From assembly GCA_965215505.1 (NCBI GenBank), contig OZ244065.1, positions 5,920,001 through 5,984,000 of the forward strand: a stretch of DNA of 64,000 nucleotides, in the 5' to 3' direction. A model generated the notes under the pieces. The model saw nothing but the letters and a program-made list of their open reading frames with translations. It was not told where the DNA came from and ran no database searches. This DNA is from Capsulimonadaceae bacterium (lineage in GTDB: Bacteria; Armatimonadota; Armatimonadia; Armatimonadales; Capsulimonadaceae). Within the stretch, counting starts at the first letter, position 1. Each line of letters begins with the position of its first letter. The position numbers and the translations under genes are program-made. Positions 24,532 to 52,119 of this stretch are shown here, piece by piece.

Positions 24532-24616
24532 CGGTTGGAGGCAGATACGGTTTGCTGCTCTGGTCTGTAAAACCAGTTCCCGTTGTGGAGTGTGGGTTCG
24601 AATCCCACCCAACCGA
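24532..24616 (+). tRNA. Atypical tRNA-Tyr(GUA), long variable arm
   Basis: Acceptor CGGTTGG/CCAACCG + A73; D stem GCAG/CTGC; anticodon stem CTGGT/ACCAG with GTA at 24567-24569; T arm GTGGG-TTCGAAT-CCCAC. Confidence 0.8.
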
Positions 24617-24649
24617 CTTGACCGACCATTCCGAAGGGAGGCGACGCGA

Positions 24650-25756
24650 ATGAGCGAACTGGAAGTACAGCGATTTTTACGCGGCGGCGGGACGCTCGCA
24701 GATCTGACGGCCACCTACGGCATCAAGGCGAAAGCCGATGTCGATCTCGGCGTCGTCATGCTGAACTACAACCAGATCGCCTCGCCGATGGCCGAAATGA
24801 TCTGCCAGGAGTGCCGCGCCCTGCTGCTCGAAATGGGCACCTGGGACGTGGTTTCGCGGAGCTTCTTCAAGTTCTTCAATCTGGGGGAGCCGAACGCCCA
24901 CGAGGTTGATTGGAAGACGGCGCGGGTGCAGGAAAAGCTGGACGGCAGCCTGGTCTGCCTCTACTTCCACCGAGGGCAGTGGCGGGTCGCGACGAAGGGA
25001 ACGCCGGACGCCTCCGGGCCGGTGAACAGCCACCCGATCACCTTCGCGGACCTGGTCAAGCAGACGCTGGCCGAGATGGGAAGCTCGTTCGAGGGCCTGA
25101 CGGCACATCTCGACCCGGCGGTCTTCTACTCCTTCGAGCTGACCGCGCCTGAGAACCGCATCATCGTCCCCTATGAAGACCGCCGCCTGACCTGGCTGGC
25201 GGCGTGGGATGCGCGGACCTTGGAAGAGCTGGACATTGAGGCGCTGCCCGACCTGCCCACCCCGCGCGTCCGGGAGTACCCGCTGCGGACTCTGGACGAG
25301 GTGATGACGGCGGTGGGGGCCATCGCGCCGTTCGCCGCCGAGGGCTTCATCGTGCGGGACGCGGCCCACCGGCGCGTCAAGATCAAGAGCGCGTCCTACC
25401 TGATGGTGGACCGCATCCTGAGTGCCCTCAGCACGCCCCGCCGCAAGGTGGAAGCGGTGCTGTCCGCGCAGTTCGACGACATGGTGCCGCAGCTCCCGCC
25501 CCAAGTGCGGGACGAGATGCTGTCGCTCCAGGCACATCTGGTGGCGTTCCGCCGGGAGGTGGCGGAGACGTTCGAGGCGCTTGCCGGGATCGAGGACCGG
25601 CGCGGGTTCGCGGCGGAGGCCTTGCGCCACCCGTTCTCGCCGATGCTGTTCTGGCTGCGGGACGGCAACGACATGGATGAGTGCTTCAGGCGGCTCCACC
25701 CGGACCGCCTGGTGGAATGGCTGGCGGTCGCGCCCGCCGGGGCGGAGGAGGAATAG
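24650..25756 (+). CDS. T4 Rnl1-like ATP-dependent RNA ligase
   Basis: ECRALL, SRSFFKFFN, QEKLDGS (motif I), FEL, EGFIV and VKIKS motifs. SD GGGAGG before ATG at 24650. Confidence 0.88.
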   Translation: MSELEVQRFLRGGGTLADLTATYGIKAKADVDLGVVMLNYNQIASPMAEMICQECRALLLEMGTWDVVSRSFFKFFNLGEPNAHEVDWKTARVQEKLDGSLVCLYFHRGQWRVATKGTPDASGPVNSHPITFADLVKQTLAEMGSSFEGLTAHLDPAVFYSFELTAPENRIIVPYEDRRLTWLAAWDARTLEELDIEALPDLPTPRVREYPLRTLDEVMTAVGAIAPFAAEGFIVRDAAHRRVKIKSASYLMVDRILSALSTPRRKVEAVLSAQFDDMVPQLPPQVRDEMLSLQAHLVAFRREVAETFEALAGIEDRRGFAAEALRHPFSPMLFWLRDGNDMDECFRRLHPDRLVEWLAVAPAGAEEE

Positions 25757-25759
25757 GAA

Positions 25760-26770
25760 ATGTCTACGCTTATCGTGGAGGTCTGCAAAATCGAAAAAGT
25801 GCTGGCGCATGACAACGCGGACGCGCTGGATCTGGCTCAAATCAAGGGCTGGCAGTGCGTCATCCCGAAGGGGAAGTACGCGCCGGGCGACCTGGTGACC
25901 TACATCCCCATTGATGCGGTCATCCCGGCCGAGCATTCGGACCGCTGGGGCATCACCAAGTACCTGTCCAACGGGCGGGTCCGGTGCGCGCGCCTGCGCG
26001 GCGAGCCGAGCTTCGGCGTCATCGTGGACCGCGACAATAAAGAATGGCCGGAGGGTAGGGACATCCAGGACTTCTACGGCATCACCAAGTACGTCCCGCC
26101 GGTCAAGATCAGCGCGGGCGACGCCGCCCCGTCCCACCCGCTGTTCGTCGAGTACACGGACGTCGAGAACCTGCGGAACTTCCCCGCCGTCTTCACGGAA
26201 GGCGAGGAGGTGTCGGTGTCGGAGAAGATTCATGGGACATCATGCCGGTTGGGGCTGGTCGAGGGCGAGTGGATGGCCGGCTCCATGTCGGTGCGCCGAC
26301 GCCGGCCCGAGGAGCTGTCGGGGAGCATCTACTGGCAGCCGATGGCCCTGCCGGATGTCGAGGCCCTGCTGAGTCACCTGGGCGCCTCGCACCGGCAGGT
26401 GATCCTGTACGGCGAGGTCTTCGGCAGCAAGGTCCAGAGCCTGGCCTATGGTCAGACCGGGGCGACCGGCTTCCGCGCCTTCGACCTACTGGCCGACGGC
26501 AAGTACCTGGACGCAGACGACTTCGCGGCCTTGTGCGCGCGGTTCGAGGTACTCGCCGTCCCCGTCCTGTACCGGGGGCCGTACAGCCTGGAGACAGTCA
26601 AGGCGCTGTCCGAGGGCGCGACGACCTTGGGCGCGGACCACATCCGCGAGGGCGTCGTCGTCCGCCCGGTGCGGGAGCGCAATGACCCGAAGGTGGGCCG
26701 GGTCTGCCTGAAATACATCGGCGACCCGTACCTGTTCGCCAAGAACGTCACGGACAGCCACGACGTTTGA
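25760..26770 (+). CDS. RNA ligase, DRB0094/DraRnl family
   Basis: N-terminal HDNADALDLAQIKGWQCV...RLRGEPSFG; SEKIHGT, LYGEVFG, FRAFD, REGVV and LKYI motifs. Confidence 0.88.
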   Translation: MSTLIVEVCKIEKVLAHDNADALDLAQIKGWQCVIPKGKYAPGDLVTYIPIDAVIPAEHSDRWGITKYLSNGRVRCARLRGEPSFGVIVDRDNKEWPEGRDIQDFYGITKYVPPVKISAGDAAPSHPLFVEYTDVENLRNFPAVFTEGEEVSVSEKIHGTSCRLGLVEGEWMAGSMSVRRRRPEELSGSIYWQPMALPDVEALLSHLGASHRQVILYGEVFGSKVQSLAYGQTGATGFRAFDLLADGKYLDADDFAALCARFEVLAVPVLYRGPYSLETVKALSEGATTLGADHIREGVVVRPVRERNDPKVGRVCLKYIGDPYLFAKNVTDSHDV

Positions 26771-26791
26771 CATTTCGAGAAAGGGAAAAAC

Positions 26792-27211
26792 ATGGAAAAG
26801 GAAAACATCAAGATCTTCGGAGACCACGAGGAGTCCACGTTGGCCCAGATCACGCGCTCGGCCTCCCCCGAGTCGGTCCGAGGCGCCGTCCTGTGCGCGG
26901 ACGGCCACAAGGGCTACGCCGTGCCCATCGGGGGCGTGATCGCCTACGAGGACAAGATCAGCCCGTCCGGAATAGGGTTCGATATCGCCTGCGGCAACAA
27001 AGCCGTGCGCCTGGACGTTCCCGCCTCGCAGGTGCGGGGCAAGATCAAGAAGATCATGGATGACGTCTGGAGCCACCTGGAATTTGGCATCGGTCGGACG
27101 AACGACACGCATGTGGACCACGAGCTGTTCGACGACGAGGCATGGAAGCTGTCGCCGATGAAGTCGCTAAAGCAGATGGCCCGCAACCAGCTTGGGACAA
27201 TCGGCAGCGGT
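26792..27211 (+). CDS. rtcB: RtcB RNA ligase, exon 1 (140 codons)
   Basis: ADGHKGYAVPIGG and GFDIACG motifs; ends QLGTIGSG. Confidence 0.92.
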
Positions 27212-27471
27212 GTCAGCCGCCTCGCATTGTAAGATGCGATGAGAAACCCGTCCAAATCGGGAAACGCCTGTGAGGGTAATTCCGAGGGAAGTGCGCTGGC
27301 GCGAGCCAACACCCCGTAGAGAGCAGAGGGACTTGGGCAGCCTGGGAACAGGCTGAAGGTGTGCTCCGAACTGCATGGAAAACGAACATGCAGAGCCAGG
27401 CGGAAACGACCTGGATGGTTTTGCTTTTTCGCGGCAGGAACCGCATAAAAAGCAAAACAGATAACAGACTG
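27212..27471 (+). ncRNA. Group I self-splicing intron (260 nt, no homing endonuclease ORF)
   Basis: Exon ends in U with P1 GCGGU/GCCGC (U-G wobble); intron ends in G; P/Q/R/S-like elements; P7 GAGCA/UGCUC; removal restores GSG|NHY in frame. Confidence 0.85.
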
Positions 27472-28227
27472 AACCACTATGTGGACATCTTCGCCGATGA
27501 GCAGGACCGGACCTGGATCGGCGCGCACTTCGGATCGCGCGGGCTGGGGCACAAGACGGCGACCTTCTTCCTGGAGGCGGGCGGGGCGAAGGACGGCATG
27601 GACGTGGACCCTCTGGTCCTCGACGTGCGCTCGTCGCTCGGCGGCGACTACCTCGCCTGCATGGCCCTGGCCGGGCGCTACGCCTACGCGGGGCGCGACT
27701 GGGTCTGCGCCGAGGTGGCGCGGCTGCTGGGGGCGAACATCCTGGAGGAAGTACACAACCACCACAACTTCGCCTGGAAGGAGACGCACGGCGGGCGGGA
27801 CCTGTGGGTGGTCCGCAAGGGGGCGACGCCGGCCTTCCCCGGCCAGAAGGGATTCGTTGGCGGCTCGATGGGGGACCAGTCGGTCATCCTGGAGGGCCTG
27901 GCTTCGGACGAGGCGACGGACGCGCTGCATTCGACGGTGCATGGTGCGGGCCGCGTGATGAGCCGGACGCAGGCGCGCGGCAAGGTCAACCGCAAGACGG
28001 GCCAGGTGATCTCGCCGGGCGTGGTCTCGCGCGCGATGATGCAGGAGTGGCTGCGCGAGAAGAACGTCGAGCTGCGCGGCGCGGGCACGGACGAGTCGCC
28101 GCATTGTTACAAACGGCTTCCGGACGTGCTGGCGCACCACGCCGGGTCCATCCGCGTCCTGCACACGCTGACGCCGCTCGGCGTGGCGATGGCAGGCGAG
28201 GACGTGGCAGACCCGTTTCGGGACTAG
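27472..28227 (+). CDS. rtcB: RtcB RNA ligase, exon 2 (spliced product 391 aa)
   Basis: Begins NHYVD; HFGSRGLG, HNHHN, VRKGATPA, GSMG, STVHGAGR and DESPHCYK motifs. Confidence 0.92.
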   Translation, partial: NHYVDIFADEQDRTWIGAHFGSRGLGHKTATFFLEAGGAKDGMDVDPLVLDVRSSLGGDYLACMALAGRYAYAGRDWVCAEVARLLGANILEEVHNHHNFAWKETHGGRDLWVVRKGATPAFPGQKGFVGGSMGDQSVILEGLASDEATDALHSTVHGAGRVMSRTQARGKVNRKTGQVISPGVVSRAMMQEWLREKNVELRGAGTDESPHCYKRLPDVLAHHAGSIRVLHTLTPLGVAMAGEDVADPFRD

Positions 28228-28231
28228 GCTC

Positions 28232-28261
28232 ACACCCGGCCCTTCCGGGCCGGGTGTTTTT
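28232..28261 (+). terminator. Terminator-like hairpin between rtcB and tRNA-Ile
   Basis: ACACCCGGCCC-TTCC-GGGCCGGGTGT followed by Ts. Confidence 0.65.
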
Positions 28262-28263
28262 CT

Positions 28264-28336
28264 GCTTCCGTCGCTTAACTGGACAAAGCGCGCCCCTTAT
28301 AAGAGCGTGATCCGGGTTCGAGTCCCGGCGGGAGTA
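28264..28336 (+). tRNA. tRNA-Ile(UAU) or tRNA-like RNA
   Basis: Acceptor GCTTCCG/CGGGAGT + A73; D stem GCTT/AAGC; anticodon loop CTTATAA (TAT at 28298-28300); T arm CCGGG-TTCGAGT-CCCGG. Confidence 0.78.
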
Positions 28337-28338
28337 GC

Positions 28339-29055
28339 CTATGAGCCGTGGGTCTTGGCCGGATGAGCGGGCTTGCGCTTGGCCGTGACGGAGGCGGCGG
28401 GCTTGTGGGGCTTTGTATGGGACACGGGGCTGACGAGGAACGTGACCGGCGTGAGGGCGGTGACGCTGCCGTCCGCCATCAGGGCGCTGGCCCCGAGCGT
28501 GTGGTCGCCGGGGCGGAAGAGGGAGGTGTCTATCGTCACTTTGCCCGACCCGTCCACCGTCAGGGGCGTCGGGGCACCGTCGAGGCTGAGGGTGAACTTC
28601 TGCGCCGTGAGCGCCCCCGTCGGCGTAATCGTGACGCTGGTCTTGCCGACGATGGTTTCCACCTTCATCGTGAAGGGCACGGCGTCGATGAGCTTGACGT
28701 TGTAGCGAGTCATCCGGGTGACCGCCCCGCCCCCCCGGCTCCAGTAGACCGCGATCTGCTCGGTCGGGTCGTGTTCGATGGCCGTGTTCCACACCAGCTT
28801 CCACGAGTCCAGGAAGTCGCCCTTGGTGAACTCGCCGTAGTCGTTGCGGAGGGCGAACGTGGTCATCATCATCTGCTGGCTGATCGTCCCCTGGAACACG
28901 ACGAGGGTGCCCCGCACGACCGTGAGCGGGATGGGGGTTGGGGACGGCTTGACCAGCACGGTCACGGTCGGTGCCTGGGCGGACGCCGCGCCACCGAAGC
29001 CGTAGACCGCAAAAATTACGAGGGCGGGGATGAGAGCCTGAGTGATAGCCTTCAT
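28339..29055 (-). CDS. Exported hypothetical protein with Ig-like C-terminal region
   Basis: Signal peptide ending ASA; beta-rich sequence; GC-biased third codon positions. Confidence 0.65.
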   Translation of the reverse strand: MKAITQALIPALVIFAVYGFGGAASAQAPTVTVLVKPSPTPIPLTVVRGTLVVFQGTISQQMMMTTFALRNDYGEFTKGDFLDSWKLVWNTAIEHDPTEQIAVYWSRGGGAVTRMTRYNVKLIDAVPFTMKVETIVGKTSVTITPTGALTAQKFTLSLDGAPTPLTVDGSGKVTIDTSLFRPGDHTLGASALMADGSVTALTPVTFLVSPVSHTKPHKPAASVTAKRKPAHPAKTHGS

Positions 29056-51378: not shown

Positions 51379-51519
51379 TGTTATTATAGCACATTCTATG
51401 AACTTTCCTCATGTTCATTTTCCGAGACAGCTTCGTCCTCAGCATAGGCCGCTCGCTTGAAAGGATTTCCGCCGCCCGGCGGCGAACCTCTGGGCATCAA
51501 CCGCCGAGGAGGCTTTCTT

Positions 51520-52119
51520 ATGTCCATCTCCAATTCACTGCCGATAGTCCCGGAGGAGCCGGGCGATAAAGACCGCGCGGACCTCTGGGAGCGGCTGCGG
51601 ATGCACTACACGCACCCGAAAACGCCCGTCGTCAACGCCAATGAGGTCTACCAGCAGGGGTTAAGCCCGCTGGACAAGCTGGCGGCGGCCATCACCGACA
51701 AGGTCGGCTCGATGGGGTTCTTCCTACTCATCCTGACCTGGACCATCCTGTGGACGGGCTACAACATCCTCGCCTCGGAGGTGCCTGCCCTGCACTGGAA
51801 GTCGTTTGACCCGTTCCCGGCGTTCGTCGCGTACCTGCTGATCAGCAACGTCATCCAGATCCTGCTCATGCCCCTCATCATGGTGGGGCAGAACGTCCAG
51901 AGCCGGCACTCGGAGATCCGGGCGCAGCTTGATTTCGAGATCAACCAAAAGGCCGAGAAGGAGATCGTGGTCATCCTGAAGCATTTGGAACACAACACCG
52001 ACCTGATGATTCATTTGATGCGCCACCTCCAGTGCCAGGTCGCCGACGAAGACCTCCAGGCCATTGCGGCGGAACACGAGGCGGCGGTGAAGCTGGAGCA
52101 GAAGGAAGTGAAGGCTTAG
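51520..52119 (+). CDS. DUF1003-like membrane protein
   Basis: VGSMGFF, FDPFP and LIMVGQN motifs. Confidence 0.8.
   Translation: MSISNSLPIVPEEPGDKDRADLWERLRMHYTHPKTPVVNANEVYQQGLSPLDKLAAAITDKVGSMGFFLLILTWTILWTGYNILASEVPALHWKSFDPFPAFVAYLLISNVIQILLMPLIMVGQNVQSRHSEIRAQLDFEINQKAEKEIVVILKHLEHNTDLMIHLMRHLQCQVADEDLQAIAAEHEAAVKLEQKEVKA

Follow-up and report, generated by a model that had tools for sequence, protein, structure and literature searches.

A very probable group I intron without an open reading frame interrupts the active-site codons of a Capsulimonadaceae rtcB gene and belongs to an rtcB-specific lineage of viral and metagenome contigs

The rtcB gene described here lies in a 64,000-nucleotide (nt) stretch of DNA from a Capsulimonadaceae bacterium, hereafter called the window, which covers positions 5,920,001-5,984,000 of a single 6.18-Mb contig (OZ244065.1, assembly GCA_965215505.1). 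The coding sequence of this gene is split into two halves that stand in different frames, lie 260 nt apart and add up to 391 amino acids (aa), and the insert at 27212-27471 is very probably a group I intron that lacks an open reading frame (ORF) and sits at the GSG|NH motif of the encoded RNA ligase (Table 1). A preliminary description of this locus, made from the sequence alone, had proposed the split gene with these coordinates and motifs, and translation and Pfam searches agreed with it. Beyond position 27211, the exon-1 frame continues for six more codons and then ends at TAA (27230-27232). The best rtcB matches in other genomes were metagenome-assembled genomes of Capsulimonadaceae, phylum Armatimonadota. 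When both rtcB halves were compared by tblastn with 80 rtcB loci from other genomes, the residues equivalent to the end of the first half and the start of the second (140|1) adjoined in all 80, the gap being 0 nt. This rtcB is present in 21 of 24 genomes of the genus, and among the 22 further congener rtcB loci besides the window's own, 21 are likewise continuous at the junction, the exception being an insert of 254 nt at the same place in one congener. Because the homologue loci (80/80) and the congener loci (21/22) are continuous at this point, the insert is delimited to the nucleotide. In the text below, G000 denotes the window's genome, G022 the intron-bearing congener and G011 the congener with the closest orthologue, and L numbers denote fetched loci. 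The G011 orthologue is 94% and 96% identical to the two halves and is uninterrupted, with an empty site that reads ...GGCAGCGGC|AAC.

Both halves of the gene qualify as RtcB RNA ligase sequence through their PF01139 matches and their conserved residues. Exon 1 contains the D..C metal-ligand motif GFDIACGNK, whereas AHFGSRGLGH, HNHHNF and HGAGR are found in exon 2. When the uninterrupted homologue L012 was aligned to the RtcB of Pyrococcus horikoshii (PDB 4dwr), the junction fell between Gly201 and Asn202 of that enzyme, and the six metal-ligand and nucleophile positions, as counted by hand, were conserved in L012; the window's exons hold the same motifs. In P. horikoshii numbering, the metal ligands are Asp95, Cys98, His203, His234 and His329 and the nucleophile is His404, with His203 binding metal M2 and Asn202 forming hydrogen bonds to the GTP phosphates (PMC9745838). 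The preliminary identification of NH as an active-site motif is supported by the position of the junction and by these roles of Asn202 and His203.

Table 1. Features of the interrupted rtcB gene, its putative intron and the neighbouring genes, in window coordinates
Feature	Position	Strand	Details and basis
rtcB exon 1	26792..27211	+	140 aa ending ...QLGTIGSG; translation; PF01139 2.4e-17, profile 8-94
rtcB exon 2	27472..28227	+	251 aa plus stop, starting NHYVDIF; PF01139 1.7e-38, profile 174-424
Predicted spliced exon junction			GGCAGCGGT-AACCACTAT
Very probable ORF-less group I intron	27212..27471	+	260 nt; G at both ends (omega G 27471)
P1	27207..27220	+	exon GCGGU (27207-27211) with internal guide GCCGC (27216-27220), loop GUCA; sequence and minimum-free-energy (MFE) fold
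P2 hairpin	27222..27239	+	GUAA loop closed by U.G; fold
P3 5' strand, CCCGUCC	27247..27253	+	pairs with 27329-27332 and 27335-27337; pseudoknot with P7
P4 and P5	27257..27285	+	P4 (27257-27262/27280-27285) encloses P5 (27266-27277, GUGA loop); J3/4 AAA just upstream
P6/P6a/P6b	27286..27315	+	GCGA loop (GAAA in G022)
P7 5' strand	27319..27325	+	G, bulged A, GAGCA; pairs with 27362-27367 (UGCUCC)
P8 hairpin	27338..27355	+	7 bp, GGAA loop (GAGA in G022)
J8/7 AAGGUG and P7 3' strand UGCUCC	27356..27367	+	aligns with GAAGAUAUAGUC of the RF00028 consensus
P9, P9a and P9b	27371..27458	+	P9 27371-27393; P9a 27396-27414 (GAAA loop); P9b 27418-27458
tRNA-Tyr(GTA)	24532..24617	+	left flank of ligase cassette
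Rnl1/gp63-like RNA ligase gene	24653-25756	+	Pfam; phrog_562 2.7e-44
PF09414 ligase with PHA02142 OB domain	25760-26770	+	Pfam; phrog_968 9.6e-45
tRNA-Ile(TAT)	28263..28339	+	right flank of ligase cassette

Read as a group I intron, the insert can be assigned paired (P) and joining (J) segments from P1 to P9, and the P-, Q-, R- and S-like core strings proposed beforehand, together with hairpins at 27222-27239, 27338-27355 and 27371-27458, are indeed present. Exon 1 ends in T, and this base, U27211 in the RNA, forms a wobble with G27216 in P1 at the 5' splice site. The in-frame stop at 27230-27232 lies within P2 and ends the exon-1 frame 21 nt inside the intron. Within P7, the pair G27321-C27366 is presumed, by analogy with known introns, to bind guanosine. 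The MFE of the insert is -111.5 kcal/mol, compared with -90.1 +/- 5.0 kcal/mol for 200 shuffled sequences (z = -4.26), none of which is as stable. The P9 region is the place where relatives of this intron hold a LAGLIDADG ORF; the 260 nt of the window's copy leave no room for an endonuclease gene, and the longest overlapping frames are of 69 aa and 80 aa (minus strand), with a plus-strand frame from a GTG at 27361 running into exon 2.

Comparison of G000 with G022 shows how the gene and the insert have changed. The exons share 88% nucleotide identity, and 74% at third positions, with a nonsynonymous rate (dN) of 0.048, a synonymous rate (dS) of 0.46 and a dN/dS of 0.10, values that are similar in both exons. 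In the intron, the stems and junctions from P3 to P8 are identical, and that span differs only in loops L6 and L8, where GCGA becomes GAAA in P6b and GGAA becomes GAGA in P8, so that both remain GNRA loops. Outside it, P2 shows a compensatory exchange from U-A to C-G (columns 36/43), a loop of P9 has lost 1 nt, and the distal part of P9b has been remodelled with its pairing kept. Purifying selection therefore acts on both gene halves and on the intron RNA in each species.

The identity of the insert was further examined against accepted group I introns. The consensus of RF00028 (Intron_gpI) was taken from alignments of two true matches, L089 (76.6 bits) and L093 (51.6 bits), and its segments J3/4-P4-J4/5, J5/4-P4', J6/7-P7-P3' and J8/7-P7' are recognisable in the window's intron, with agreement in P4/J4-5. 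The P7 of the window's intron reads GAGCA/UGCUC where the consensus has GACUA/UAGUC, two pairs being changed on both strands, and P6 opens with GGGAAG where the consensus has GCCAAG. A covariance model, R1, was built from the cores of the window's and G022 introns only; its structure comprises P4, P5, P6/6a/6b, P7 with the bulged A, P8 and P9, and P3 was omitted because it crosses P7. On 43 kb of RF00028-positive loci, R1 matched L006 at 30.2 bits (E = 1.7e-8) and L092 at E = 3.5e-6, and it also fell below 0.01 on L005, a second intron of L006, L095, L089 and L093 (1.7e-8 to 5.9e-3 overall). Its alignments set the window's P7 against GACUA/UAGUC or GACUG/CAGUC. In a control of 561 kb, made up of the window and the 80 rtcB loci, the self match (198.5 bits) was the only one below 0.01. 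The next-best control match, at 51397-51530 of the window on the minus strand (11.1 bits, E = 0.24), is probably due to chance.

Relatives of the intron were sought with a pattern consisting of its two P7-bearing strings (9 and 12 bases, separated by a gap of 20-50 nt). This pattern matched 51 viral contigs, many of them 200-400 kb long, and 105 metagenome stretches, 80 of which were examined, giving 131 loci. Strong R1 matches, of 60-159 bits, number 80 (41 among the 51 viral loci, 39 among the 80 metagenome loci) and have 46 distinct cores; a further 16, at 18-43 bits, were discounted as chance matches or introns of other types. RtcB coding sequence stands beside the core in 65 of the 80 strong matches (tblastn, E<1e-3), and most of the remaining 15 are loci that stop short, a few hundred bases at most from the core. 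In rtcB genes of viral and metagenome contigs, the distinct intron variants number at least 38, and the RtcB proteins that flank the family's introns are just 20-37% identical to that of the window. Apart from those of the window's genome and G022, every family member came from IMG/VR or metagenome contigs, and a blastn search with the window's intron and a phage-type relative against 50,697 GenBank phage records returned no match.

The ends of these introns follow the same rules throughout the family. The 3' end is G in all 59 relatives in which exon 2 could be aligned from residue 1, and exon 2 begins with NHF (55), NHY (3) or NHC (1). Exon 1 ends in GGT, with T at -1, in 14/14 relatives aligned to the last residue, compared with intron-less homologues in which the third base of the Gly codon is T in 5 of 80 and otherwise C (48), A (17) or G (10). 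In the 11 introns for which both ends are known, P1 is always 5-8 bp long; it covaries with the exon, with A-U, G-C or C-G at position -4, as in GGAGGU/GCCUCC, GGGGU/GCCCC and GCGGU/GCCGC. These introns constitute a distinct group I lineage, characterised by a P7 of GAGCA/UGCUC and a P6 starting with GGGAAG, that targets one site in rtcB; its hosts are rtcB genes, numerous and highly divergent, from large phages and uncultured microbes, and in many members a LAGLIDADG homing endonuclease is encoded in P9. The preliminary description had suggested looking among rtcB homologues for inserts at the same codon, and these were found both in G022 and, as family introns, in rtcB genes of viral and metagenome contigs.

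Two members of the family have surroundings of their own. The viral member most like the window's intron (L128:5795-6000, 139 bits, in an IMG/VR contig of 89 kb) is one of the 15 strong matches without RtcB beside the core, although the locus has ample flanks; it lies in a different phage gene, towards the 3' end of an ORF of 297 aa with no Pfam or PHROG match, and a free-standing GIY-YIG ORF (L128:6062-7396, minus strand) is located directly downstream. Additionally, a metagenome contig carries four evenly spaced, sub-threshold matches to a repeat of clustered regularly interspaced short palindromic repeats (CRISPR; RF01329, 30.8-31.4 bits; L205:7009-7260, minus strand), together with a tRNA, about 2.5 kb upstream of its intron-bearing rtcB.

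Covariation was measured on 44 distinct rows of alignment A4, using the R1 structure with P3 added as a second bracket type. A4 was fitted to the structure of R1, which favours the modelled helices; 94.1% of cells form a standard pair, compared with 71.2 +/- 0.7% in shuffled alignments. Changes on both sides were found in 40 of 47 pairs and in 384 cells, against 104.8 +/- 8.4 cells after shuffling; the covariation score of 0.462 compares with 0.042-0.062 when partners are slid by 1-3 columns, and none of 500 shuffles reaches any observed covariation measure. P3 covaries even though it is absent from R1, its outermost pair being CG in 22 rows, GC in 12 and UA in 1, with helix 1 paired in 88.4% of cells. 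In P4, double-sided changes occur in all six pairs, with 98% of cells paired, and the two P6 helices (5 and 6) are 99.5% and 94.7% paired, with 10/10 pairs changed on both sides. All seven pairs of P8 are likewise changed on both sides, and 7/7 pairs of P9 covary. P7 is invariant in the family alignment because the search pattern had fixed it. A P3-P9 core with a P3/P7 pseudoknot is supported by this covariation. The earlier proposal of an ORF-less group I intron with these boundaries and peripheral hairpins, a P1 of GCGGU/GCCGC and a covariant P7 is upheld by R1, by the RF00028 consensus and by covariation.

Evidence that the exons are joined in RNA was obtained from four public RNA or DNA runs, searched over 26700-28300 at a likeness of at least 88%. 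The matches are Logan contigs with rough depths, and no weight was given to gaps in cover or to contig depths, except for a rough depth match in run X3. In the metatranscriptome X8, a 447-nt contig covers 26965-27211 (247 nt) and 27472-27671 (200 nt), joining 27211 to 27472 unambiguously and skipping exactly 260 nt. It differs from the window by 27 and 17 mismatches in the two parts, and G000 and G022 differ over the same ranges by 27 and 16. A separate intron contig of X8 covers 27278-27429, with an overhang that has the G022 version of P9b, and the variant letters of the run are those of G022 at 28 of 29 listed sites. The exon sequence of the joined molecule is therefore that of a species with the intron in its genome. 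In X2, an RNA run, one contig contains the whole intron together with 30 nt of each exon, and an exon-1 contig stops at 27211, a pattern that we infer to be the branch of spliced and unspliced forms in a graph of 31-letter words. Both the intron and its junctions with the exons are covered by contigs of X1 and X2, as expected of unspliced RNA or DNA, and X1 has no cover over parts of the gene. In X3, which is probably DNA, an intron-bearing contig continues through both junctions, and in a second contig exon 2 follows an exon-1 end that matches the empty site of G011 exactly; that sample therefore contains an intron-less relative with a different exon sequence. Taken together, the runs are good, though not conclusive, evidence that exact splicing takes place in vivo in the sister species G022; self-splicing chemistry and splicing in the window's organism are inferred. 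A contig joined exactly at the junction anticipated in the preliminary description has been found, and it matches G022 rather than the organism of the window.

On the textbook group I pathway, the gene would be expressed as follows. Transcription would pass through the intron, and a ribosome would halt at the in-frame TAA 21 nt inside it. The RNA would fold into P1-P9 with the P3/P7 pseudoknot, free guanosine held at the G-C pair of P7 would attack after U27211, the base that wobbles with G27216 in P1, and the 3' OH of exon 1 would then attack after the terminal G27471. The ligated mRNA would encode a 391-aa RtcB with its metal and GTP site intact. The window's copy either lost an endonuclease gene or never received one, and we propose that the intron persists because splicing makes it nearly neutral. 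An intron-bearing gene of this kind looks broken, with its two frames and its stop, yet very likely encodes a working RtcB, and annotation would probably call it a pseudogene or two fragments.

However, several observations weigh against the intron. RF00028, to our knowledge the sole group I model in Rfam, has a gathering threshold of 50 bits; it gave no match in the window at the gathering score, nor at E<=10 in 27100-27600 or 27205-27400. In a whole-genome search it left the window's intron undetected and had no match anywhere in the genome, and it matched 0 of 11 rtcB-intron family loci at E<=1. Rfam as a whole, at the gathering score and at E<=10, gave only chance-level matches to unrelated families. 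The covariation of P7 comes solely from the comparison with RF00028-type introns. Pairing of P10 with exon 2 amounts to 0 bp in G000 and G022, compared with 2-10 bp in nine relatives, and the P1 loop of these two introns has only 4 nt; the missing P10 and the short P1 loop could weaken the choice of the 3' splice site. Furthermore, the RNA evidence comes from the sister species G022 and not from the window's organism, the joined X8 molecule is a Logan contig from that relative, and RNA libraries can hold DNA. Since intron-less alleles occur in such samples, an intron-less G022-like strain may also be present.

The failure of RF00028 has a likely explanation in the P7 and P6 differences. The model does work in this phylum, with matches in 18 of 151 genomes, including all five sampled congeners, and several of these are in 23S ribosomal RNA (rRNA) genes. 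Its structure line treats the P7 strands as unpaired conserved sequence, and for this reason the P7 covariation costs score; with a P7 off the Rfam consensus, the lineage would go undetected, and the window's intron would be missed because its P7 and P6 sequences differ. RF00028 is a detection model rather than a definition of the class. The covariance-model check proposed in the preliminary description came out in two ways, negative with RF00028 and positive with R1, which was built from this core and matches accepted group I introns.

The absent P10 and endonuclease gene, the minimal P1 loop and the origin of the RNA evidence in a relative would all suit a dead group I intron that has turned this copy of rtcB into a pseudogene, the work being done by an intact paralogue. 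Such a paralogue is present: a second rtcB of 438 aa, 39% identical and with an uninterrupted GSGNHF, is found in the same genome (L098:1501-2817, minus strand, equivalent to G000:C1, about 248 kb). Nevertheless, we regard a dead intron as very unlikely, as both exons are intact in two species at a dN/dS of 0.10 and a dS of 0.46, the core stems and junctions are identical despite this synonymous divergence while the changes keep pairs and GNRA loops, and an RNA-library contig with G022 exon sequence is joined exactly at the predicted junction. The paralogue does qualify the earlier statement that the ligase is made only after splicing, which holds for this copy but not for the genome, where the 438-aa gene is intact.

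The distribution of the intron bears on its history. Of the 21 genomes of the genus with this rtcB, two have the intron and 19, that of the closest orthologue included, lack it, and the intron is single-copy in the window's genome. A blastn search among 61 relatives found it only in G022; six short matches (E 6e-5 to 4e-3) were left unused, save two that overlap RF00028 introns in 23S rRNA. A whole-genome search with R1 revealed no other strong copy in 39 genomes of the family or 151 of the phylum, although weaker matches of 18-37 bits are present. Two R1 matches were considered as copies and rejected: that in L103 lies inside an ordinary ORF and is probably due to chance, and that in L101 belongs to a different intron, one that RF00028 detects. 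The latter (L101:1476-1677, minus strand, in congener G001; RF00028 72.3 bits) has a large serine-recombinase ORF as its neighbour, and a 195-aa ORF on the same strand overlaps it.

Long members of the rtcB family, of about 900-1040 nt, have an ORF of about 210-270 aa downstream of P9, and all seven intron ORFs of relatives that were tested are LAGLIDADG_3 above the Pfam cut-off. Forms with and without such a homing endonuclease gene (HEG) exist side by side: L172 (L172:9895-10837, 943 nt, with a LAGLIDADG ORF) and L176 (oriented 1544-1758, 215 nt, ORF-less) have identical 5' ends and P1/P10, and form a natural pair for the gain or loss of the endonuclease gene. The LAGLIDADG relatives, this HEG-plus/HEG-minus pair and the patchy presence of the intron form the pattern expected of a selfish mobile intron after loss of its endonuclease gene.

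That pattern bears on a possibility raised in the preliminary description, namely that the intron is a domesticated regulatory checkpoint. In this scenario, splicing would be the rate-limiting step, adjusted by GTP, Mg2+ or the state of translation, making RtcB conditional. Retention of the intron without an endonuclease gene in two species under strong constraint on the core would agree with such a role, as would the in-frame stop just inside the intron, a position at which, according to a review, stops serve to stall ribosomes and let the intron fold (PMC3984707). However, a constrained core is expected of any intron that needs to splice, no ligand-binding or switch element is seen, and the window's copy is indistinguishable from ordinary ORF-less derivatives of mobile introns, having same-site relatives with LAGLIDADG genes and HEG-plus/HEG-minus pairs. 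Absence from 19 of 21 congener genomes with this rtcB, the closest orthologue among them, also argues against regulation, and we consider it highly unlikely. The idea of a checkpoint gives way to the selfish mobile pattern (LAGLIDADG ORFs in 7/7 relatives, the HEG-plus/minus pair and presence in 2/21 genomes), and the parallel once drawn between the guanosine cofactor of the intron and the GTP dependence of RtcB is a mere coincidence of words.

A non-intron origin, whether as a miniature inverted-repeat transposable element, an insertion sequence remnant, an assembly artefact or two polypeptides that assemble, has next to no probability: Rfam finds no intron and a frame with a GTG start at 27361 runs into exon 2, but the element is single-copy in the genome, its ends show no visible target-site duplication or terminal inverted repeat, separate assemblies of G022 and of several public runs contain the same insert, a group I fold is supported by covariation, the R1 matches and the rtcB-site family largely refute the idea, and a split into two polypeptides would fall inside the metal and GTP site.

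Accordingly, an ORF-less group I intron remains by far the best account of the insert at GSG|NH. A bolder extension would hold that a large clade invisible to Rfam has specialised on the G-G/S-G|N-H codons of rtcB, circulates with LAGLIDADG in viral contigs of 200-400 kb and occasionally enters chromosomes, where ORF-less copies may be kept for host use, for example to make the ligase dependent on conditions for ribozyme folding. Taken as a whole, this extension seems unlikely.

The genomic neighbourhood is also relevant to RNA repair. The interrupted rtcB is the last of three RNA-ligase genes in the same orientation, located between two tRNA genes (24532-28339), and in G022 a tRNA follows rtcB as well. 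Three RNA ligases between two tRNA genes suggest a phage-type tRNA-repair module. A prophage origin of the neighbourhood was considered and rejected, as the flanks are chromosomal (NadA, a TIM-barrel protein, MFS, an aspartyl protease and GGDEF-HD) and no integrase was seen there. Between the rtcB stop and tRNA-Ile, a G+C-rich hairpin followed by a T run (28236-28262) resembles an intrinsic terminator.

What makes this case valuable is the sizeable lineage of rtcB-specific introns that it brings to light, found largely in viral contigs and missed by the standard model; our understanding of how group I introns work is unchanged. The same misreading as a broken gene applies to the at least 38 distinct intron variants in viral and metagenome rtcB genes, and a model built from the family would recover introns that RF00028 misses (11 of 11 tested). 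With it, rtcB joins the short list of protein-coding hosts of group I introns and provides a new homing site in the codons of a metal and GTP site. The HEG-plus and HEG-minus forms, together with intron-plus and intron-minus alleles, offer a good natural system for the cycle of endonuclease gain and loss in phage RNA-repair genes. A full-text literature search, judged at the level of listings and abstracts, returned no report of an intron in rtcB.

Among known systems, the best R1 matches outside the family are 23S rRNA introns of Armatimonadota, at 30-31 bits (L005 from G015, L006 from G006, L090 from G157 and L094 from G154). The P9 and J7/9 of the congener introns in G006 and G015 (CCGAACUGCAUGG...ACAUGCAGA) are nearly identical to those of the window's intron, and this likeness in sequence hints at shared ancestry or recombination with them. 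The introns of L090 and L094 share the P6 form GGGAAGU...ACCCCGUA with the window's intron, and a LAGLIDADG ORF is confirmed for L090 only (LAGLIDADG_1, L090:712-1194, 7e-26). They differ in having an rRNA host and the standard P7 GACUA/UAGUC, and in being detectable by RF00028. Armatimonadota 23S rRNA genes, those of the congeners included, hold one or more group I introns.

The window's intron also resembles the group I introns of phage and bacterial protein genes, with which it shares a group I fold that would be self-splicing, insertion at a critical codon, an early in-frame stop, the existence of ORF-containing and ORF-less forms and a patchy presence among close relatives. A review notes that the homing sites of bacterial group I introns often encode functionally critical residues and suggests that the in-frame stop found shortly after the start of many introns stalls ribosomes, letting the RNA fold (PMC3984707); both features are present in the window's intron. 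What sets it apart from the introns reviewed is a P7 off the Rfam consensus and its host, rtcB, a gene that goes unmentioned in that 2014 review (0 occurrences; PMC3984707).

The likeness to archaeal RtcB inteins is of another kind. The Pyrococcus 'Hyp-2' inteins are also selfish, self-splicing elements with a LAGLIDADG-type endonuclease in the active-site region of rtcB. They splice at the level of the protein and occupy a different site in the gene, whereas the element of the window has stops in all frames and would be removed as RNA.

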